Source: Ostreococcus lucimarinus
Lineage: Eukaryota
Length of the DNA: 64,000 nt
NCBI GenBank assembly: GCA_000092065.1
Contig: CP000588.1
Reading direction: 5' to 3' (one strand)
Every line of letters starts with the position of its first letter. Positions within the stretch are counted from its first letter, which is position 1. The notes beneath the pieces are model-generated. The model worked only from the letters and a program-made list of their open reading frames with translations, ran no database searches and was not told where the DNA came from. Shown one piece after another: positions 14,841 through 42,568 of this stretch. A program made the translations under genes and the position numbers.

Positions 14841-15150
14841 TCGACGGGGTCGATCGACGGGGTCGATCGATACGATCGACCGAATGCTTCGACGCGATCG
14901 ACGCGATCGATCGATCGGATACGATCGACGTCGATCGACGTGATCGATCGATCGAATGTTTGACGCGATCGACGTCGATCGATGCGATCGATCGATCGGA
15001 TACGATCGACGTCGAACGACGTGATCGATCGATCGAATGCTTCGACGGGATCGACGTCGATCGACGCGATCGATGCGATCGAACGATCGAACGCGATCGA
15101 ACGATCGGATGCGATCGACGGGATCGACCGAACTCGATCGATCGACGGCG
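14841..15150. repeat. Palindrome-rich minisatellite with a roughly 80-bp higher-order unit built from CGATCG/ATCGAT cores, 3-4 copies.
   Basis: Visible periodicity: ...cgaatgcttcgacgcgatcgacgcgatcgatcgatcggatacgatcgacgtcgatcgacgtgatcgatcgat... repeated with few substitutions. It lies in the divergent RCC1/iPGM promoter region. Confidence 0.8.
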
Positions 15151-15350
15151 CACCGTTCCCCTCGCGACGTTCGCGAAAGCGCGGCCGTCCAACCTCAGAG
15201 CGTCGATCGATCGACCTCGCGATCCGGACAAAGGAAATCGGGTGTTTGCCCTAGCCCTCCGAAAAGTACCGAACGCGCCGCCCTCTCTCACGCGCGGGGC
15301 GCGTGGCGTCGCACTTCATCGCGCGCGCTCGAAGACGACGGGGAACGATC

Positions 15351-16994
15351 ATGGAGCTTCATCCGCACCCGACAATCCCGCAAAAGAAGCCCGTCTTGGT
15401 GTGCATCCTCGACGGTTGGGGAGAGAATGAATACGAGGACGAGCACAACGCCGTGCATGTGGCCAAGACGCCGACGATGGACGCGCTCAAGGCGAAAGGT
15501 CAATCGTTCTATCGCACCGTCCAGGCGCACGGTACGGCCGTTGGCCTGCCCACCGATGCGGACATGGGGAACTCCGAAGTCGGGCACAACGCCCTGGGCG
15601 CGGGGAAGGTGATCGCGCAGGGAGCGTCCCTGGTTGACATTGCGCTTGAGACAAAGAACATGTTTAGCGACGCCGGGTGGGGGTACATCAAGCCCGCGTT
15701 CGCGAACAATACGCTTCACGTGATTGGATTATTGAGTGATGGCGGTGTGCACTCGCGCACGGATCAAATATTTGGCTTGATGCGAGGCGCGCTCGCGGAT
15801 GGGTGCAAAAAGTTGCGCCTGCACGTGCTCACCGACGGACGAGACGTTCCGGATGGTACATCGCACGAGTACATGGCAAAACTCGTCGCTGAACTCGACT
15901 CGTACACCGCGCAGGGATGTGATGCGAAGGTTGCTTCCGGTGGTGGACGCATGGCGGTGACCATGGATCGTTACGAAGCCGACTGGGGTATGGTTGAGCG
16001 GGGCTGGCGCGCGCACGTTTTGGGTGACGCCCCGCATAAGTTCAAGTGCCCGAAAGAAGCTTTGACGGAGCTTAAGAAGGATGGAGCCACCGACCAGTAC
16101 GTTGCACCGTTTGTCATCGTTGGCGATGATGGCGAAGCGGTCGGTACGATCCAAGACGACGATGCCGTCGTCATCTGCAACTTCCGCGCAGATCGCGTTG
16201 TCGAAATTTCCAAGGCTTTCGAGTATGCAGACTTTGACTCGTTCGATCGCGTGCGATTTCCCAAGACAAAGTTTGTGGGACTGATGCAGTACGATGGCGA
16301 CTTGAAGCTACCGGCGAACTATCTCGTTCCACCCCCGCTCATCGAGCGGACTTCTGGCGAATGGCTCGCGAAGAATGGATTGAAAACCTTCGCGTGCTCC
16401 GAAACTCAAAAGTTTGGTCATGTCACCTTCTTTTGGAACGGTAACCGCTCTGGGTACTTCAACGAAAATCTTGAAACATATGTCGAGATTCCGAGCGACA
16501 ATGTGCCTTTTAACCAAGCGCCGTTGATGAAGGCTCGCGAAATCACCGCAGCCGGGAAGGAGGCGTTGCTCTCTGGGAAGTACGACGTCGTTCGGATCAA
16601 CTACGCTAACCCTGATATGGTTGGTCACACCGGTGACATGGCGGCCACCGTTGCGGCTTGCGAAGAGTGCGATGCGTGCGTGAAGGAACTTCTCGACCTC
16701 GTGGAAGAGTTGGGTGGTATGTTCCTGGTCACCGCCGATCACGGCAACGCCGACGACATGGTGCAGCGCGACAAAAAGGGTGGCGCGTTGAAGGACGACA
16801 GCGGCGCACTCTTGGCTCTCACTTCGCACACTCTCGCTCCAGTTCCGGTCGCAATCGGTGGTCCGGCGTTGCCCACGGGTGTCAAGTTTCGCGACGATCT
16901 CCCAAAGGCTGGTCTCGCCAACGTCACGGCGACGTACATCAACCTCATGGGATACGAGGCGCCGGCTGAGATGGAGCCCAGTCTCATCGCGTGA
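15351..16994 (+). CDS. 2,3-bisphosphoglycerate-independent phosphoglycerate mutase (iPGM, plant type).
   Basis: The full-length iPGM begins with MELHPHPTIPQKKPVLVCILDGWGE... The ORF track start at 15303 is a GTG; the first ATG is at 15351. Confidence 0.9.
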   Translation: MELHPHPTIPQKKPVLVCILDGWGENEYEDEHNAVHVAKTPTMDALKAKGQSFYRTVQAHGTAVGLPTDADMGNSEVGHNALGAGKVIAQGASLVDIALETKNMFSDAGWGYIKPAFANNTLHVIGLLSDGGVHSRTDQIFGLMRGALADGCKKLRLHVLTDGRDVPDGTSHEYMAKLVAELDSYTAQGCDAKVASGGGRMAVTMDRYEADWGMVERGWRAHVLGDAPHKFKCPKEALTELKKDGATDQYVAPFVIVGDDGEAVGTIQDDDAVVICNFRADRVVEISKAFEYADFDSFDRVRFPKTKFVGLMQYDGDLKLPANYLVPPPLIERTSGEWLAKNGLKTFACSETQKFGHVTFFWNGNRSGYFNENLETYVEIPSDNVPFNQAPLMKAREITAAGKEALLSGKYDVVRINYANPDMVGHTGDMAATVAACEECDACVKELLDLVEELGGMFLVTADHGNADDMVQRDKKGGALKDDSGALLALTSHTLAPVPVAIGGPALPTGVKFRDDLPKAGLANVTATYINLMGYEAPAEMEPSLIA

Positions 16995-17262
16995 TCGCGA
17001 CCCGCGGAGCTCTTTGCGACGCGTCTCCACGCGCACTCAAGGTGCTTAATCTCGAATCACCATTAATCAGTCCTCATGTCAACATCAGATTTTTTCTTTA
17101 GACGCACCGTCCCGGCGACGCGTCTGTCCGCACTCTGCGATGCGCGTCGACGGCGCTTCCTCGGCGTCCCTCGCGCGTGCGTCCGTCCCTCGCGTCGCGC
17201 GTGCGAGCACCGCTCGTTCGACAAGGCACCGCGCTCGTTCACATCGCGCGCGCGTCGTCGCC

Positions 17263-18713
17263 ATGTCCACCACCGTCAAGTCTTGGGACGAACTTCGCGC
17301 GTCCCACACCGCGTCGACGTCGAGCTGCGTGAAACGGCTGACGGAAGACGCGCAGGCGCGCGCGCGCGGCGGTGGACCGGCGCATCAGGACAACGCGCTG
17401 CGATTGTTCGGCGCGCGCGAGGAGGACGTGCGGGTGACGTTTTATCGCGACCACGCGGGGGTGCGTGCTGAAGCGACGCGCCGTCGCGTCGGCGCCCCAG
17501 CGCGCCGCCCGAGCGCGCGGTTTGGATTTGGCGATTCGCGGCGAACGGAGAACGAAAGACTGACGCACGAACGCTCTCACTCGCGCAGTGGTGCCCGTAC
17601 TGTCAAAAGCTTTGGATCATGCTCGAAGAAAAACAAATCCCGTACCGAGTGGAGAAGATCAACATGCGATCGTACGGCGATAAACCAAAGGCGTTTCTGG
17701 ACAAGATTCCGAGCGGGCTGTTGCCGGTGGTGGAGATCGACGGGAATATGATCACGGAGAGTTTGGTCATCATGCAAATCCTCGAACGCGAGTTCCCGGA
17801 GCGACCGACGCTTCCCGAGGATAAGTTTGAGGCGGCGAACGTGCTTTTGAAGCTCGAACGTCAGTTGTTTTCGGATTGGTGCGGCCTCGTGTTTCGGCCC
17901 TCGATGCCGGGACCGCTGGGAGCGAGAGCGGGATTCGAAAAGACGTTGGACAAGGTCGACGAAGCGCTCGGCTCTACGGAAGGACCATGGTTTCTCGGGG
18001 GAGAAAGTCCAAGCATTGTGGACTTTCAGTACGTCTCGCACGTCGAGCGCATGAACGCGAGCGTTCTGTATTGGAAGGGACTGCAAATGCGCGGCACAAA
18101 GCGTTGGGCCAACATAGAAAGGTGGCTCCTCGCGTTTGAGGCGAGACCGACGTATCAGGCGACAAAGAGCGACTACTACACGCACATCATGGATATCCCA
18201 CCTCAATATGGACCGGGATACGCCGATAAAAACGCCGCGGTGGACGAAGCTGTGGCGGTCATCGGCGGCGAAAAGAGTTGGCGATTACCGGTTTCTCTAT
18301 CTGCTGACGGCTTGGAGCCGCTTCCGGAATCTATGAACCGAGGTGAAGAGGACGCAAAGCATGAAGCAGCGTATAAACTGATTGCAAACTCTGCAAATAT
18401 CGTCAAGTTTGCTTGCAGAGGTATGGGCGAGCCAGGTCGCAAGCAGTTCGGTGCTCCGCTCGCGGATCCTTATGCGGTCCCGAATTTAAACTACGAAAGT
18501 CGCGTCGATGAATGCTTGCGAAAGGTGGCGCAGGCTCTGATCGAGGGTACCGCCGAGCCATCGGAACCAAGTTCGAATACAAGCTCGGAGGCGAAATCCG
18601 TTCGTAAATGTCTAGCATACCTGCGCGATCGCGTCGGGGTCCCGCGAGATATGAGCTATCCCGCGGCGATGCAACTCAGAGCGCACTTAAACTGGTGCGC
18701 CGACTCGCTTTAG
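17263..18713 (+). CDS. Glutathione S-transferase-like protein (thioredoxin-fold N-domain with CPYC), two exons.
   Basis: Exon 1 (17263..17460) ends ...VRVTFYRDHAG, followed by a GTGCGT donor. Intron 17461..17588 has an ACTGACG branch and CGCAG acceptor. Exon 2 (17589..18713) begins WCPYCQKLWIMLEEKQIPY... Splicing restores the canonical GST N-terminus that the ATG-only ORF (17619) lacks. A possible transit-peptide start is at 17140. Confidence 0.7.
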
Positions 18714-34370: not shown

Positions 34371-35963
34371 CTATTCTCGCTGACGCGGCGTGCATTTTAT
34401 GATGTCGTCGACGCGAATGATCATTTCAGCCGCTTCGGTGGCCGAAAGAAGGACTTGCTGCTTGACACGGAAGCACTCGACCACGCCACACTGTTGCATG
34501 TCACCGACTTCGCCCGTCAAGATGTTGATACCGGTGTTCTTCTTCCCCGCAGCGTGCGCGGCGCGCATTTGCGATACGAGCTCAGAACTATCCAAGCCGC
34601 CGTTGTCGCAGATGATGGTCGGGATAGCGCGCAAAGCCTTGGCAAAGCACTCCATCGCTAACGATCTCTTCCCTGGCGTTTTCGCTGCGAGCTCTTCCAC
34701 GGCTTTGGACATGATCATCTCCGAGCAACCGCCGCCGTAAATGACTCTGCTGTCCTTCACCGTCGACGTCAAGACGCACAGGGCGTCGTGCAACGAGCGT
34801 TCAGCCTCACCTAAGATATGCTCTGACGCCCCTCGAAGAACGATCGTACACGCCTCACCCTTGGCAACGCCGCTGAATCGAATCAAGCGATCCTCACCGA
34901 TCATTACCTCCTCAATCAAGTCGCAGGAGCCGAGCTGAACGTCCTCTGGGTTGTCAAACGTCGAGCAAATATCGCCACCCGTGACCAAGGCCAGGCGTTC
35001 GATGCCGTCAAAGTCGGCGTGTTCGATCGCAGCCACGCCCGCTTCGGTGAAGATTTGTTCGGGGTAGTTGTAAATCAATTGACGGTTGATGAAGCAGTTG
35101 ATGCCGTAGCCGATGATTTTTTCGCACTTGCGCTTCATCTTCTCGCGCTCCGCCTGTTCAATCTCCGCAACCTTGGTCATGGAGTCCACTCGCACGCGCG
35201 CACCGTAAATTTTAATTTTATCCGTATCCATGGGCGTGTTGGCGATCAAAATCTTCGCGTTTTCGATTCTCTTCGGTTGTCCGACGCCAAAACGCTTGTC
35301 CAAGATGAATCCTTCGTCTAAAAACGAATCCTTCAAGCTTCCACCCGGTTTCTGAATGATTTGAATCATCTCTAGGTCTCCTGACCCTTTCAATCGCAGC
35401 ACCGCATCCACAGCGAGCTTGGCGAAGTGTTCCTTGTCGTTCGTCAAGATTTTCGAACTCAGCGTAGTCTTCGCGATGTTGGTCAAGTCTTGCCTGAATC
35501 TCGCCTCGTCCCCGGCGTTATCGCTCGCCGCGCGCTCCAGCGCCGCCTTCGCCGCCTCGCACGCCTCTCTAAACCCTTGAATAATCGTCATCGGGTGCAC
35601 GTGTTGATTCACCAACTGTTCCGCCTGTCTCAAAAGTTCGCTCGCGAACACCACCACCGACGTCGTCCCGTCCCCGACCTCGTCGTCTTGCGCCTTTGAG
35701 ATGTCCACCAGCACCTTCGCCGCCGGGTTATCGACGTATATCGACTTCAAGATCGTCGCTCCATCGTTCGTCACCGTCACGTTCCGTCCTCTCTGCACGC
35801 TCTGCAGGATCTTATCCATCCCCTTCGGCCCGAGCGTTGACTTCACCAAGTCCCCGATCGCCATCGCGCCGACGAAGGATGCCAGGCGCGCGTGTTCGCC
35901 CTTTTCCTCGCTCGCGCCCTCGCGCAGGACCGACGCGTCGGCGTTTCCCGCCGCGGTCGCCAT
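34371..35963 (-). CDS. CCT2: T-complex protein 1 subunit beta (CCT2).
   Basis: Full-length group II chaperonin subunit ([10 protein letters not shown]..., ATP-binding GDGTTS). The N-terminus is collinear with CCT-beta. Confidence 0.9.
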
Positions 35964-36506
35964 CGCGTCTTCGTCTTCGTCGCCGTCTCGGTCTCGCGCG
36001 CGTCCCGTCCGTCGTCGTCTGCCGCGTCGCGCGCGGGGCGCGTCGTCAATCGAATCAATCGCGCAAAGCGACCGCGTCGACGACCGCGCGCGGGTTGACC
36101 CGACCGGCGAGTCGCCGCTCTATTCGTACTAGGGTTTAGGGTTTAGGTTATTTAGGTGAGACGATCGAGCCGCATTCATTCATAGGCTCGATCGTGGCCC
36201 GAAATACGACGCCCCCCGCGGGCGTCGTCGCGCGCGCGCGACGGCCGCGCGCGCGACGCGCCGACGCGTCGCCCGCGGGCGCGACATCGAACGACGCGAC
36301 GGGACGCGACCGGGCGCGACGGGACGACCGGCGAGCGCGTAAAGGCGAGCGAGATCGTCGACGCGTCGAGCGCGGACGTCGACGTCGGAAGACGCGACGC
36401 GACGCGACGCGAACGAAGCGATCGAGCGAACGATTCGCGTCGCGACGCATTTGACGATTCTTGTTCCCCCGGGACGCGCGAGGGGGGCGCGCAAGGGGAG
36501 AAAATC

Positions 36507-38195
36507 ATGAAGGAGGCGGCGAAGCGCGCGAAAACGACGGCGATGAAGGCGGCGAGACGACCGAGGAGCGCGGCGCGGGCGATGGCGGTGGCGGCGACGA
36601 TGGGGGGGGAGGGAGGGGGGGGGACGGAGCTGCGGGCGTTCGTGGCGGCGTGCGCGAACGCGCTGGGGCGAAGGGACGAGGACGTGGGGGCGAGGATCGC
36701 GGCGACGCTGGAGGCGAATTGGTTCACGACGCCGATGGATTTGGCGAGATTGAGCGTGGAGGAGGCGCGAGCGATGGCGGTGCCGATGAAACTGGTGGAT
36801 GAGTTTAAGCGCGCGCTGGACGGCGCGCGCGGGTTCGCGGCGAGCGGCGCGAGCGCGACGACGACGACGACGGAGAAAAACGACGAGGGAGAAACGGCGC
36901 TCGATTTAGGACTCGAGCCGTTGGCGTCGGAGACGGCGGCGACTACGATGAAGACGATGGTGTCGTCGAGCGGACGCATGGCGTTGAAGATGCGCACCGG
37001 TTTATCCGCCGAGTCGACGCGAGTGACGAGTCGACCTGTCGGATTACCGAATTATCGCATACCGTTGGAGGAATGCGGAAGCGATTTGAAGAAACAGTTC
37101 AAGGCTTTGCGCAAATTCCTTACCGTCCGTAGGCTTGGGCCTCAAGAATGCATTCTCGCTGGGGTGACGGCGGAAAAGTACGAAGACGTTTTGCGAGGCG
37201 CCTTGGGATGGTTGTGCGCGGAGAAAAACATGAAACCTTCGAAAGTCACGCTCCTCGACTTATTCCCGAGTATTGACGCGGAGAGTGCCAATGGAGCTTT
37301 TGAATACGTCACTTGGCTGAACGATGAGCGACAGACGTCGGCAAATTACGAGCTTCTCGTCACTCGCTCGTGCATCGCGGCGGTGAAATTCTTGTACGGC
37401 AATTTGAGCAAGGCGCAACCGGGCGAGGGCGAAGCGAAACCGTACCATGACTTGCCGGTGATGAAAGAATTACGTCGTATGGCGAAAGACGCTAAAGCTC
37501 GATCAGCCAAGGCGCCTAGCGTGAGCGATGAGCGTCTGAAATGGCTCGAATGGGATGAGTACTTGACGCTCGTGCAACGATTGAAGAGCGAGTGCACGGC
37601 GAAGAATTGTCTGGGACAATCTCGCTCGGCGAGCGCCGTGGCGTGGAGTGTGCAGAAGTATTTAATTTTTGGCGTTCTGTCGTGTGTGCCCGATCGTCAG
37701 CGAACTCTACGCGAGCTACGAGTCGGGAAGACGCTGTTCAAAGAGGGCGATAAGTGGGTCATTCGCCACAAAGAAACCGATTATAAAACGGGCAAGGACT
37801 ACGGGGTGCGACCACCGCTCGTAATCGCTCCGCATCTATATCCGACGCTCGAGACATTCATCGAAACGCACCGCAAAGAGCTCAATCCGAACCACGATTT
37901 CCTTTTCACTCGCAAGAATGGTGAGCAGTTTGACGGACAGGGGATTTATCGGCTCTTTACGACGACGGCGATGCGTCTCACCGGCAAGCGGACGAACCCG
38001 CACTTGATTCGAGACATGGTGGTGACGCACTTACGAGGGACGGACGCGTCCGAGCGACAGTTAGAGGCGCTAGCAATCTATATGGGTCACTCACTTCAGA
38101 TGCAAAAGTCGACGTACGACAGACGATCTGTCGAGCAAAAAGTTGCGCCGGCGGTGGATCTGTTAGATTCGCTCAACGCAAAGATGAGACTCTAG
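36507..38195 (+). CDS. Tyrosine-recombinase domain protein (phage-integrase/Crypton-like). C-terminal core-binding and catalytic domains with a low-complexity N-terminal extension.
   Basis: The C-terminal ~200 aa carry the canonical order of YR active-site elements: Arg (VPDRQRTLRELR), Lys in a beta-hairpin (HKETDYKTGKDYGVRPPLV), HxxR (NPHLIRDMVVTHLR, nt ~38001), His (AIYMGHS) and the nucleophile Tyr (QKSTYD, nt 38115). An upstream SAM-like core-binding segment is present (KALRKFL...AEKYEDVLRGALGWL). Confidence 0.6.
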   Translation: MKEAAKRAKTTAMKAARRPRSAARAMAVAATMGGEGGGGTELRAFVAACANALGRRDEDVGARIAATLEANWFTTPMDLARLSVEEARAMAVPMKLVDEFKRALDGARGFAASGASATTTTTEKNDEGETALDLGLEPLASETAATTMKTMVSSSGRMALKMRTGLSAESTRVTSRPVGLPNYRIPLEECGSDLKKQFKALRKFLTVRRLGPQECILAGVTAEKYEDVLRGALGWLCAEKNMKPSKVTLLDLFPSIDAESANGAFEYVTWLNDERQTSANYELLVTRSCIAAVKFLYGNLSKAQPGEGEAKPYHDLPVMKELRRMAKDAKARSAKAPSVSDERLKWLEWDEYLTLVQRLKSECTAKNCLGQSRSASAVAWSVQKYLIFGVLSCVPDRQRTLRELRVGKTLFKEGDKWVIRHKETDYKTGKDYGVRPPLVIAPHLYPTLETFIETHRKELNPNHDFLFTRKNGEQFDGQGIYRLFTTTAMRLTGKRTNPHLIRDMVVTHLRGTDASERQLEALAIYMGHSLQMQKSTYDRRSVEQKVAPAVDLLDSLNAKMRL

Positions 38196-38223: not shown

Positions 38224-39129
38224 CTAGCTACATGTGATTCCTAGGTTCCAAAAACGCAATTCTCCTGGCTGCTCCTGTTCTTCTTCGTCTTCGGACTCGT
38301 ACAAACACAACAGTTCGTGTAAATCATCACGCCAAGTGTACGCGCTCGAATACCACGAGTGCTTATCGGAACGACACCGCTTCCGAGGAAGCCGTCTCCG
38401 AGTCGATGAACGGTCATCACATCTACCGTCAGTATCGACTGGTCGATCGCTCGGGAGTTCGCGCGTCCACGCGTAGTCGCCGCAATTTTTGCACGTGCTT
38501 CGACAAAACGAGCGCAATGCGCGTTGTGTTTTCGTCGCATCCGACGCCATGAACGTGCGATACGCGGCGTTGAAACTCTTCGACACGCACGCGAGCGCGC
38601 ATCGAGTTCTATGATCATCGCACTTCCCCAAAATTTCAATGAGCAAGTCTTCGTGGAACACGTCCAAACTCCCGTTCCCGTCGCTCGGCTCCCGTCGCTT
38701 CCGCTGCGCGCGCGTCCACTCGATTTCGCACCGCTTCCAATCGCTCCTCAATTGTTTGTACTTCGTCCCAACCGACGCCCGCGCGCACAACGGCGACAAC
38801 TGCTCCAGAATATCCCTCACCAGCTTCACGCACAACGAGGACGCGAGCACGCTCCGCTCCGCCACCGCGAGCGCGTCCTCGACCATCGCCACCGCGCGCC
38901 TCACCGCCGCGAGCGCGCTCTCGAGCGCTTTTCCACTCGGTTTCCACGGCGTGCGCTTCACCCCTCGCGTCGTCGTCGTCGTCGTGCGCCGGTGACGATT
39001 TCCCACGAGCAACGCGCGCAACTCTGCGAGCGCCTGCACGCGCTCGCGCGGCGTCATCGACGGCGCGATCGCGGCGAGCACGCGCGCATCGATCACCTTC
39101 GCCCGTTCGTCGCCGTGCGCGGTCGTCAT
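38224..39129 (-). CDS. F-box domain protein.
   Basis: F-box consensus HEDLLIEILGKCDDHRTRCALACVSKSFNAAY. Its stop is 28 bp from the stop of the convergent recombinase-like gene. Confidence 0.5.
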   Translation of the reverse strand: MTTAHGDERAKVIDARVLAAIAPSMTPRERVQALAELRALLVGNRHRRTTTTTTRGVKRTPWKPSGKALESALAAVRRAVAMVEDALAVAERSVLASSLCVKLVRDILEQLSPLCARASVGTKYKQLRSDWKRCEIEWTRAQRKRREPSDGNGSLDVFHEDLLIEILGKCDDHRTRCALACVSKSFNAAYRTFMASDATKTQRALRSFCRSTCKNCGDYAWTRELPSDRPVDTDGRCDDRSSTRRRLPRKRCRSDKHSWYSSAYTWRDDLHELLCLYESEDEEEQEQPGELRFWNLGITCS

Positions 39130-40342: not shown

Positions 40343-42568
40343 CTATGGGAAGTATCGCGTCGGCGTGGGTTTGGGTTTGGCCGGCGCTTGTTTGCTCTTC
40401 GGCGTCCACTCGCATGCGCTCGGCTCTGCCGCGTGCGCCTTCTTCTTTCCACCGGGCTTCCACTCGCACGCGGATCCCTGTGCGACGGCTCCATGCGCCG
40501 CCTTATGCTCGGCACGGTGCTTGATCTGCGTCTCGAGTGCCACACGGACGTTTTCATCCAAAACATGAGCCATTTTGCACATCTTCAGGAGCTCGTACGG
40601 TTCATCTTCAATCGGTCGATCGCGGTCCGCCGCAACCACGCATATGAAACCAAAAGGCTCCGTCGTGCCTGCCTTGCACCGAAGCTGGTGCGTATCACCC
40701 GGTGCGGTATACCCGACGTCACCCACCCCAAGATGGTAAGACTCCAGACCGAGCTGGATTTCGCCTTCCCCTCGAAGCACTACGACGACGTGTTCGTGTT
40801 GGTGGTGCTCGAGCGTCGTCCATCCACCCGGGGCAACTTCAAAGTAACGCACGTGGAAAACTGGACTCTCTCCTCGCTTTCCGATGAGTTCGATGCGTGA
40901 ACACTCCTTGAAACTCGCCCCATCCATCTTGTACATTTCCTGCGGTACGCGCTCCCACTGAAACTCTCCCTTCTTTCTATTGAGTACCTTGCTATGATTT
41001 CCGTCTAGCGGCCCCTCAGACGCGTGTTTAGTTCCATTTCTCTTCGCCTCGGCGTCCATCAGGCTCTTCACGAGCGTCGTCAGCTCGTCAACCTTAGACT
41101 CGAGCGCATAATTCTTCTCTTTAAGCGCGCTCATTTGAGCAACGGCTTCAGGGTCAAGGCCCACCGTCCACGGCGTCGACGGCGGCGCAGCCGGATACGT
41201 GCCGTGCGGAGTCAGAGGGTATGGGCTATGTGCACTCGAACTCTCGTCTACGAGTTTCAATCTGGGTCGCATGCCGCTTCCCGGGGTGAAAAGTCCGTTG
41301 CTGTAGTGCGTTGGCACGTGATAGCTGCCAGGTTGTGATTCTCGAGGCCCGTAGATGTCGGTGCGACCCGCCATAGTCAGGATGTGCCTCGCATTCGCCG
41401 TCAAGTCCGAGCTATGGCTGTATAGTGATCCACCGACGAGGAGTAAAACATCTTGACCGTACGTCTCCATCATCACTTTAACCTTGTCGAGCGTCATGCC
41501 GCCGCCCGGACTCGGTAAGATTGACGGGTGGTGCGCCAAGACTCGCCTGGCACCGTGAACAATGTCTTTGCACTCTTCAACACTGAAGCCAAACCGCCCG
41601 CCAAAGTTTGGGAAAATAGTCGCATCTGCACCAGCCAATCGCGGTAGCAACCCGAGCAGGACGCCATGAGCAAATCCGCGAATGGTGTTTTGGCTTCCGC
41701 CGCCGAGCATGGCGCCGAGAATAGCGGGGTGCGCGATGATGGGAAGCCCAAAATCGGGATCTTCTGCCAGCGCTCGCATGCTATCCAAACCCGTGATTCC
41801 TGGAATCATCAACACCGCCCCAGCACCCGCGGCCTTGGCGAACTTGGCGCGCTGTACGACCAAGTGCGCCGGAGCGTTGATGCACGGCGCGTAGATGCAC
41901 CGCCGTCCCGTCTCCGCGTTCGCCCGTTTCACCGCCGCCGCACACGCCCGCACGCGCTCCTCATACGGGGCGTACCGTTGATTCGCCAATCCATGATCAT
42001 CCTTTATGATGTCAATTCCCCCCTTCGCGAACGCGTACGCCATTTCCGCAAGTTTCTCGCTCGGCGTCCCCATCGGCTTGAGCGCCGTCATCACAATGGG
42101 TCCGCGTTCGACCCCGAGCAATTTCCTCAGCCCCTTCGCCCCGAACCTCGCTCCCGCGAACTTCCCTAGCATCGCATCCGAAAGTTCCACGTCTCGCACC
42201 ATCACCCGTTCCTTTATGCTCGTGTTCCCGAAGATGACGTTCACCAGCTGCGGCAACTCGCCGCCCGCGCAGTCGTCGGCGTACCGCACCTTGGCCCTGT
42301 ACACGTCCCCACTCGCGCCTTTCCCGCGCGCGTCCACCCCCGAAGCGCACCGCTCGATCGACACGCATTTTCCCACGACGTGCTCGTTGATCCACGTCCC
42401 CGGCGGGACGAGCGCTTCGGGTAACTCGACGGTTTGCTCGAGACACAGCGCGTCGACGATCTGTCGCGCCTCCGCGTTCGACGTCGCGTCGACGTCGTAC
42501 GTGACGTGAAAGCACGACGACGCGCCGTCGCGCGTTAACGAAGGCGTCGCCGGGGCGTCGCGTGGCAT
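40343..42568 (-). CDS. RuBisCO-like protein (form IV RLP large-subunit fold) fused to a C-terminal cupin domain, 741 aa.
   Basis: The N-terminal ~400 aa are collinear with RuBisCO large subunit/RLP (GTWINEH, KPMGTPSEKLAEMAYAFAKGGIDIIKDDHGLANQ, a Gly-rich loop). The C-terminal ~250 aa contain a cupin-type His cluster (PGGWTTLEHHQHEHVVVVLRGEGE...GDTHQ), preceded by a coiled-coil and Pro-rich linker. Confidence 0.65.
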   Translation of the reverse strand: MPRDAPATPSLTRDGASSCFHVTYDVDATSNAEARQIVDALCLEQTVELPEALVPPGTWINEHVVGKCVSIERCASGVDARGKGASGDVYRAKVRYADDCAGGELPQLVNVIFGNTSIKERVMVRDVELSDAMLGKFAGARFGAKGLRKLLGVERGPIVMTALKPMGTPSEKLAEMAYAFAKGGIDIIKDDHGLANQRYAPYEERVRACAAAVKRANAETGRRCIYAPCINAPAHLVVQRAKFAKAAGAGAVLMIPGITGLDSMRALAEDPDFGLPIIAHPAILGAMLGGGSQNTIRGFAHGVLLGLLPRLAGADATIFPNFGGRFGFSVEECKDIVHGARRVLAHHPSILPSPGGGMTLDKVKVMMETYGQDVLLLVGGSLYSHSSDLTANARHILTMAGRTDIYGPRESQPGSYHVPTHYSNGLFTPGSGMRPRLKLVDESSSAHSPYPLTPHGTYPAAPPSTPWTVGLDPEAVAQMSALKEKNYALESKVDELTTLVKSLMDAEAKRNGTKHASEGPLDGNHSKVLNRKKGEFQWERVPQEMYKMDGASFKECSRIELIGKRGESPVFHVRYFEVAPGGWTTLEHHQHEHVVVVLRGEGEIQLGLESYHLGVGDVGYTAPGDTHQLRCKAGTTEPFGFICVVAADRDRPIEDEPYELLKMCKMAHVLDENVRVALETQIKHRAEHKAAHGAVAQGSACEWKPGGKKKAHAAEPSACEWTPKSKQAPAKPKPTPTRYFP

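Follow-up and report, generated by a model that had tools for sequence, protein, structure and literature searches.

A host-resident, intact tyrosine recombinase (YR) is almost certainly encoded in the nuclear genome of Ostreococcus lucimarinus, at positions 36507–38195 on the plus strand of the window, by which we mean the whole stretch of 64,000 nucleotides that was analyzed. We favor the hypothesis that the gene has been vertically inherited, that its product is probably active, and that a core related to cyanobacterial integrases has been joined to a sterile-alpha-motif (SAM) domain and an N-terminal leader in a protein that would be imported into an organelle and recombine the organelle DNA. 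For this reading as a whole, we estimate a probability of about 55%. The gene is complete, with a single exon and the stop codon included in the interval, and the ORF listing agrees with a preliminary description of this DNA, which had placed an ORF of 562 amino acids at the same position and on the same strand. A near-identical public protein from Ostreococcus sp. 'lucimarinus' is annotated as a "Tyr recombinase domain-containing protein" (UniRef A0A7R9T5V2), and the cluster in which the encoded protein falls at 90% identity includes UniRef100_A0A7R9T5V2. A JGI model of 667 amino acids was rejected because it extends the open frame upstream without a start; in the upstream direction, a stop codon in frame is reached after 108 codons, and no start codons are present over this distance.

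The predicted protein begins with a leader (residues 1 to ~38; 36507–36620) that is disordered in the structural model, contains 9 K/R and 1 D/E among its first 25 positions, and is a candidate transit peptide for import into an organelle. It is followed by a SAM domain with five helices (residues ~38–107; 36618–36827), a domain that is recognized by either the five-helix SAM fold or a match to Pfam SAM_1/SAM_2, and by a poorly conserved linker rich in Ser, Thr and acidic residues (~108–165; 36828–37001), which is disordered with a pLDDT below 50. Further downstream are an enlarged, all-helical core-binding domain (~185–395; 37059–37691) and the catalytic domain (396–562; 37692–38192), all of these segments being encoded on the plus strand. 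The catalytic domain contains R402, K427, the H499-x-x-R502 box, H528 and the nucleophile Y537, with K427 as the beta-hairpin lysine within the motif YKTGK. Downstream of the nucleophile is a conserved C-terminal helix (542–561) with the motif QKVAPAV. Cyclic protomer contacts are made through the C-terminal helix in the Cre and Xer enzymes.

The evidence from sequence comparisons for the assignment to the tyrosine recombinases is in itself marginal. The Pfam profile PF00589 matched the Ostreococcus protein with an E-value of 6.5e-6 and 26.5 bits, slightly below the gathering cut-off of 27.1, and it matched 23 of 38 relatives at E<0.01, with 6.4e-8 as the best value. The score against the NCBIfam XerA model was 17.6 bits, far below the cut-off of 220 for inclusion in the Xer equivalog. 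When the protein alone was searched against the PDB, only a spurious match was obtained, and a profile search with the family gave only marginal matches to Xer proteins (E 0.07 for XerH). The family profile could be aligned to XerH and XerD over the HxxR...GHS...Y segment, and in this alignment H499, R502, H528 and Y537 are equivalent to H244, R247, H270 and Y279 in XerD. A weak hhalign alignment (probability 1.3%) of R402 with R173 in Cre hints that the first catalytic arginine is R402.

The structural evidence, which comes from a predicted model, is strong. An AlphaFold2 model based on 38 homologs had a mean pLDDT of 79, with values above 90 across most of residues 185–562, and the top 30 matches in a Foldseek search against the PDB were all tyrosine recombinases (XerA, Cre/Tre, XerH), with alignments of ~370–390 columns that span both domains. 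The recombinase fold claimed in the preliminary description is thereby borne out, and all the catalytic motifs it quoted were found in the ORF. The protein has the catalytic-domain fold of the DNA breaking-rejoining enzymes, a helical core-binding domain N-terminal to the catalytic domain, and the catalytic residues in the order R...K...HxxR...H/W...Y, as in the YR superfamily. Among the 38 sequences, R402 and K427 are invariant, as are the flanking motifs PDRQRT-RE and YKTG, and the conservation of H499, R502, H528 and Y537 is 90% or higher. The full set R-K-H-R-H-Y was read in 93 of 124 representatives, the remaining 31 being mostly gapped or truncated, with substitutions mainly in the cyanobacterial clade.

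When both domains are considered, the structures that match best are those of the Xer proteins (XerA, XerC/D, XerH) and Cre of the Cre/loxP system, which have an identical R-K-H-R-H-Y chemistry. The HxxR-GHS-Y spacing is equal to that in XerD, a C-terminal helix follows the tyrosine in all of them, and the role on multicopy circular replicons that we propose for the Ostreococcus protein is similar. It differs from Xer and Cre in that the sequence similarity is marginal, the core-binding domain has roughly double the length, a SAM domain is present, and the host is a eukaryote.

A word-indexed search identified 164 relatives, and 437 clusters were found at E<=1e-30 when 1.84 billion representatives were searched exhaustively with HMMER. 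The family is present in the Chlorophyta (Ostreococcus, Cymbomonas, Tetraselmis, Coccomyxa, Elliptochloris, Trebouxia, Chlorella, Micractinium, Chromochloris, Raphidocelis, Monoraphidium, Chlamydomonas spp. and Volvox), in diatoms (Fistulifera, Mayamaea, Extubocellulus), in saprolegnialean oomycetes (Saprolegnia, Achlya, Thraustotheca, Aphanomyces) and in the Amoebozoa (Acanthamoeba, Balamuthia, Dermamoeba). The distribution is patchy, and no members from land plants, animals or fungi were seen among the matches listed. In neighbor-joining trees, which are distance trees without support values, the Mamiellophyceae, the Chlorophyceae and the Trebouxiophyceae each group together and the oomycetes group with the diatoms; these groups broadly track the host phylogeny, which fits mainly vertical descent. 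The eukaryotic proteins form a separate clade that is sister to cyanobacterial integrases, the outer prokaryotic clade containing 29 representatives, including one "site-specific integrase" from Hassallia.

The association with the Cyanobacteria was also evident in genome and plasmid collections. When prokaryotes were scanned with an alignment of 10 sequences, each species being represented by one genome, 13 loci were recovered, all 13 of which are cyanobacterial, including Nostoc, a Tolypothrix plasmid, Microcoleus, Kamptonema, Pseudanabaenaceae, Symplocastrum, Halomicronema and Chamaesiphon. Likewise, all 17 matches in a search of 72,556 plasmids were to cyanobacterial plasmids, with sizes of 14–159 kb. 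As judged from these comparisons, the nearest prokaryotic relatives of the Ostreococcus protein are cyanobacterial integrases of ~570 amino acids, mostly plasmid-borne (Hassallia MBW4607426.1, plasmid3 of Tolypothrix PCC 7101, and plasmids of Nostoc, Microcoleus and Planktothrix). The identity to Hassallia MBW4607426.1 is 34% over 421 amino acids (BLASTP, E 3e-70), and a profile-profile comparison by hhalign of the eukaryotic proteins with the cyanobacterial integrases gave a probability of 100 and an E-value of 6e-121 over a shared core of 405 columns, starting at Ostreococcus residue 156. The match over these columns indicates that the core-binding and catalytic domains represent one ancestral module held in common with the cyanobacterial plasmid integrases, and that everything N-terminal to the core is eukaryote-specific. 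The Ostreococcus protein has the extended module that characterizes the long, plasmid-type integrases of the Cyanobacteria, with the common motifs PDRQRT-REL-G-TL, D(Y/F)KTG, NPHL-RD-VT and YDRR...QKV-PA; it is a member of the YR superfamily and belongs to an unnamed clade that includes these integrases.

Outside the common core, the two groups differ. The cyanobacterial integrases have neither the SAM domain nor the leader that are present in the eukaryotic proteins, but a different N-terminal segment of ~150 amino acids, and some of them have active-site substitutions. Furthermore, they are encoded on plasmids or beside transposase and primase-helicase genes, whereas the eukaryotic genes are fixed and syntenic host genes. 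The genes adjoining the cyanobacterial relatives code for DDE transposase, NB-ARC, AAA_25/PadR, CHAT-TPR and DUF3854/D5_N/DUF5906 primase-helicase proteins, and no tRNA-adjacent integration was seen for these copies. Two of the cyanobacterial relatives read Y-K-H-R-H-Y and have only weak NCBIfam matches to Xer. This arrangement presumably recalls that of the heterocyst excisases XisA/XisC. A cyanobacterial "Cyan" subgroup of simple tyrosine recombinases has been proposed as a stand-in for Xer (Smyshlyaev et al., 2021, PMC8138268), and the sister clade of the eukaryotic proteins may or may not correspond to this subgroup. Because no relatives were found in the IMG/VR viral contigs or in a collection of phage genomes, a giant-virus or phage source of the family is unsupported.

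The N-terminal leaders, which are absent from the cyanobacterial relatives, are of different types in different eukaryotic clades. Arg-rich, acid-poor leaders of the mitochondrial type are present in the oomycetes and the Amoebozoa, as in Saprolegnia (MLRTASRLARRRSPWQPTRFLSS), Achlya (MLRAAIGQARHHVGRRCFS), Thraustotheca (MLAVRRLQVLRTRWFS) and Dermamoeba (MFSRFALNLSRNPRPTFSF), and the first 25 residues in Balamuthia contain 7 K/R and 0 D/E; the annotated N-terminus in Acanthamoeba is an acidic segment. Many of the green algal leaders are rich in Ala, Ser and Arg. Most diatom leaders have a hydrophobic segment resembling a signal peptide, followed by the junction [AGSC]|F, such as LAASA|FQP, MIDG|FAP, KMAEA|FLP and HCLA|FQS, and also ASVHA|FCL in an Extubocellulus transcript and IIVSA|FVP on a genomic contig of 5 Mb. 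A signal peptide followed by phenylalanine corresponds to the bipartite plastid import signal of the ASAFAP type (Gruber et al., 2015, PMC4329603).

By simple fixed criteria, which are crude proxies and not trained predictors, a hydrophobic h-region followed by [AGSC]F was identified in 17 of 31 complete diatom-side sequences versus 0 of 53 others (Fisher p 1e-9), and basic, acid-poor leaders in 16 of 32 green algal, oomycete and amoebozoan sequences versus 0 of 21 cyanobacterial homologs (p 4e-5), with many of the N-termini being automatic gene calls on metagenomic contigs. Since plastid-type leaders in the diatoms and mitochondrial-type leaders in the oomycetes occur in one and the same family, retargeting or dual targeting would be needed to account for them. 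Two basal diatom-side proteins carry mitochondrial-type leaders, which may mean that two paralogs with different targeting exist. In the Ostreococcus proteins, the first methionine of the open frame always yields a leader of 20–40 amino acids rich in K/R, S/T and Ala, which diverges in sequence between clades while the acid-poor composition is kept. With a start codon that is itself predicted, the short Ostreococcus leader can only be called suggestive of an organelle signal. Taken across the family, targeting to an organelle is nevertheless probable in our view; a text search of the literature returned no proteomic or imaging data on the localization of these proteins.

Another explanation, which we regard as unlikely, is a host function in the nucleus, where the recombinase or just its DNA-binding would have nuclear DNA as its substrate, in a role such as programmed rearrangement, rDNA or telomere maintenance, or gene regulation, like other domesticated recombinases. 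The host-gene status and the conservation would fit such a function equally well, SAM domains are frequent in nuclear and cytosolic proteins of eukaryotes, and the Acanthamoeba model is without a presequence-like N-terminus. The Crypton transposons and the genes derived from them (DUF3504, Ndc10/Cbf2, QRICH1) are likewise nuclear genes with a YR fold in eukaryotes, the domesticated ones being single-copy host genes, and the Crypton-derived Ndc10 and QRICH1 are nuclear DNA binders (PMC3212892). However, most catalytic residues are reported to have been lost in domesticated proteins of the DUF3504 type, and the loss extends to Ndc10, whereas the full catalytic hexad is retained in the family studied here (PMC3212892). 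Arguing further against a nuclear role, the clade-specific leaders follow the organelle import system of the host and are absent from the cyanobacterial homologs, and no basic, NLS-like cluster was evident on reading the acidic, Ser/Thr-rich linker.

If the protein is organellar, one can outline how it may have evolved and how it would work. In the eukaryotes, a SAM domain and, at the N-terminus, a leader for targeting would have been added to a recombinase core of 400 amino acids. The protein would be made in the cytosol and imported with loss of the leader, into the plastid in diatoms, into the mitochondrion in oomycetes and amoebae, and into the plastid, the mitochondrion or both in green algae such as Ostreococcus. 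Inside the organelle, it could form a tetrameric synapse on two paired core sites of the multicopy genome, an assembly possibly aided by SAM-mediated oligomerization and by the C-terminal helix. Sequential strand exchange would then proceed via a 3'-phosphotyrosyl intermediate at Y537 and a Holliday junction. We tentatively propose that the protist enzyme, with its ancestry in cyanobacterial plasmids, is catalytically active and imported, and that it performs site-specific recombination on organelle genomes, in the form of multimer resolution or repeat inversion.

The most likely outcome of such a reaction would be the resolution of genome multimers, as in Xer/dif and Cre/loxP, or an inversion between repeats. 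The former is favored because the sister proteins reside on small, multicopy cyanobacterial plasmids, because Xer and Cre, the enzymes that match best in structure, resolve multimers, and because organelle genomes are multicopy, recombining replicons; as a specific role it is nonetheless doubtful. Multimer resolution by tyrosine recombinases is common in small multicopy plasmids, as is well established and also stated in PMC8138268. An inverted-repeat flip-flop is an attractive role for the Mamiellales and the Saprolegniales. Several carriers of the gene are not known to have large organelle inverted repeats, and for this reason the flip-flop is not preferred over multimer resolution. The carriers are not known to share any obvious feature in the architecture of their organelle genomes, be it the presence or absence of inverted repeats or a circular or linear form, which counts against the favored reading. 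Flp of the yeast 2-micron plasmid is a tyrosine recombinase that resides in a eukaryote and inverts DNA between inverted repeats on a multicopy circular replicon, and it is a possible analog if the target is an organelle inverted repeat. It is also conceivable, although improbable, that an organelle-targeted protein with the same fold performs a chemistry other than recombination, such as relaxation in the manner of a type IB topoisomerase, the resolution of hairpin telomeres, or the processing of replication or recombination intermediates without a defined pair of sites.

The genomic setting is that of a host gene. The neighbors code for DAGAT, CCT, an F-box-like ORF, a threonine aldolase and an RLP-cupin fusion, and the GC3 value of 0.70 is within the range of 0.69–0.73 in five neighboring genes, as expected from the host-like GC3 noted earlier. 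The divergent CCT2 gene (34371–35963; Cpn60_TCP1 match, E 6e-160) is separated from the recombinase gene by a spacer of 543 bp with 69% GC (35964–36506), which is presumed to be a bidirectional promoter region common to both genes and contains low-complexity, CG-rich repeats only, with no element termini. On the other side, a gap of 28 bp separates the gene from a convergent F-box-like ORF of 301 amino acids; both distances had been given correctly. A tblastn search showed that the gene is single copy within the 64-kb window. No reverse transcriptase, RNase H, gag or second element ORF was seen near the gene, and its flanks, which contain only CG-rich low-complexity repeats, have neither terminal repeats, direct or inverted, nor target-site duplications. 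The preliminary description was thus right that reverse transcriptase, gag and terminal repeats are absent nearby, and the checks of copy number, synteny and repeats all agree with its preference for a host gene over an insertion; its interpretation as a whole is supported in part.

The position of the gene is fixed and syntenic in at least three genomes. Two other Ostreococcus genomes have an identical gene order (Med10-DGAT-CCT-YR-Fbox-Thr aldolase-RuBisCO-like/cupin-DCP2-aminotransferase-Tricorn), with orthologs that are 77% and 74% identical, and a Mamiellophyceae-like genome with 41.5% GC and an ortholog of 61% identity has kept a partial microsynteny (PXA/PX-Arf-Med10...CCT...YR). Synonymous sites are saturated in these comparisons, with dS values from 1.9 to infinity. 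The recombinase core is under purifying selection, and the evidence is strong: dN/dS is ~0.05 over residues 171–562, compared to 0.5–0.8 over the first 170 codons. In Acanthamoeba castellanii (3086 nt for 659 amino acids) and Saprolegnia parasitica (1986 nt for 530 amino acids), the genes are single genes among ordinary host genes, on one contig each, and since their spans exceed the coding lengths, both are interrupted by introns. Members of the family were also recovered from transcriptome assemblies of Tetraselmis (MMETSP0804), Dermamoeba (Trinity) and Extubocellulus (MMETSP0696).

No family member tested matched DUF3504 or GCR1_C, by which an affiliation with the Cryptons would be recognized, and the Ostreococcus gene has neither the adjacent RT/RNase H/gag genes and terminal repeats of DIRS, Ngaro and PAT elements nor the mobility, usually multiple copies and short terminal direct repeats of Cryptons. 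A Crypton-like DNA transposon with a single ORF, active now or until recently, or the remnant of a DIRS or Ngaro retroelement, would account for a lone YR ORF within a eukaryotic nuclear genome, and Cryptons are known from oomycetes and diatoms (PMC3212892), but such an element is very hard to reconcile with the same position in genomes saturated at synonymous sites and a microsynteny that reaches the relative with 41.5% GC, with one copy in the window and repeat-free flanks, with the lack of RT, RNase H and gag, with the introns in the orthologs and with the absence of relatives from IMG/VR and phages, and it was rejected on these grounds.

In the literature that was searched by locus tags and concepts, mostly outside subscription journals, we found neither this family nor any SAM-YR fusion described, and likewise no native tyrosine recombinase that is encoded in the nucleus and targeted to an organelle. 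Nearly all tyrosine recombinases known in eukaryotes belong to mobile elements, to the 2-micron plasmid, or to domesticated derivatives whose catalysis has been lost. A deeply conserved host gene in which the active site is complete suggests that cells carry out a site-specific recombination reaction so far not described. If the favored hypothesis of an organellar recombinase is true, many protists, including chlorophytes, diatoms, oomycetes and amoebozoans, would have a native organellar counterpart of Xer/dif or Cre/lox, and a gene from cyanobacterial plasmids would join the toolkit for organelle DNA maintenance. The activity of such an enzyme in organelles could explain the monomeric state of the multicopy genomes in mitochondria and plastids, or the interconversion of inverted-repeat isomers, and the recombinase with its target site might provide a natural system for the engineering of algal organelle genomes.

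The spacer of 543 bp (35964-36506; 69% GC) that separates the recombinase gene YR from the divergent chaperonin gene CCT2 is unusually long for such a compact genome. Low-complexity repeats of the CGCGACG type fill it and give rise to many spurious antisense ORFs. Upstream of YR the reading frame stays open for 108 codons without a start codon, and this explains why the public gene model (667 aa) is too long.

On the other side of YR, the convergent ORF on the minus strand (38224-39129) was called an F-box gene in the preliminary description. The copy in the window gave no Pfam match at E<1e-3; its syntenic orthologue at locus L001 does match PF00646 and PF12937. Further downstream, also on the minus strand, is the gene for a fusion protein of 741 aa (40343-42568) with a RuBisCO large-subunit-like domain at residues 145-392 and a C-terminal Cupin_2 domain at residues 574-643. 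Its position and domain fusion are conserved in two further Ostreococcus genomes, and the fusion may join two steps of a methionine-salvage-type pathway.

P0086, a homologue with 37% identity (L021/L022, 8001-9809; contigs of 62.6% GC), is located in a different, compact host neighborhood that includes genes for ORC1-like and ataxin-2-like proteins as well as for an APE-type nuclease that has a GRF zinc ribbon. P0086 could be the orthologue from another prasinophyte lineage, or else a paralogue. Genes near the cyanobacterial relatives, at L010 (11446-14544, minus strand) and L007 (12861-13622, minus strand, and 15050-17317, plus strand), encode a DUF3854/D5_N/DUF5906 primase-helicase, a DDE transposase and an AAA_25/PadR protein. 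The first catalytic Arg is replaced by Tyr in two cyanobacterial representatives, P0229 and P0236, and the catalytic residues are Q-K-K-R-H-Y in one subclade.

The family recombinase is also contained in P0100 and P0335, one labeled "uncultured Salinisphaera sp." and carrying a Sec20 Pfam domain, the other a Chlorella sorokiniana "saccharopine dehydrogenase isoform B" of 1058 aa; these entries likely reflect a bacterial MAG contaminated by a eukaryote and a fused gene model.

Most of the diatom-side homologues have signal-peptide-plus-Phe leaders, whereas P0196 and P0174, which are basal in this clade, have basic leaders of the mitochondrial type. This difference in leader sequences hints that the ochrophytes may possess two paralogues with different targeting.
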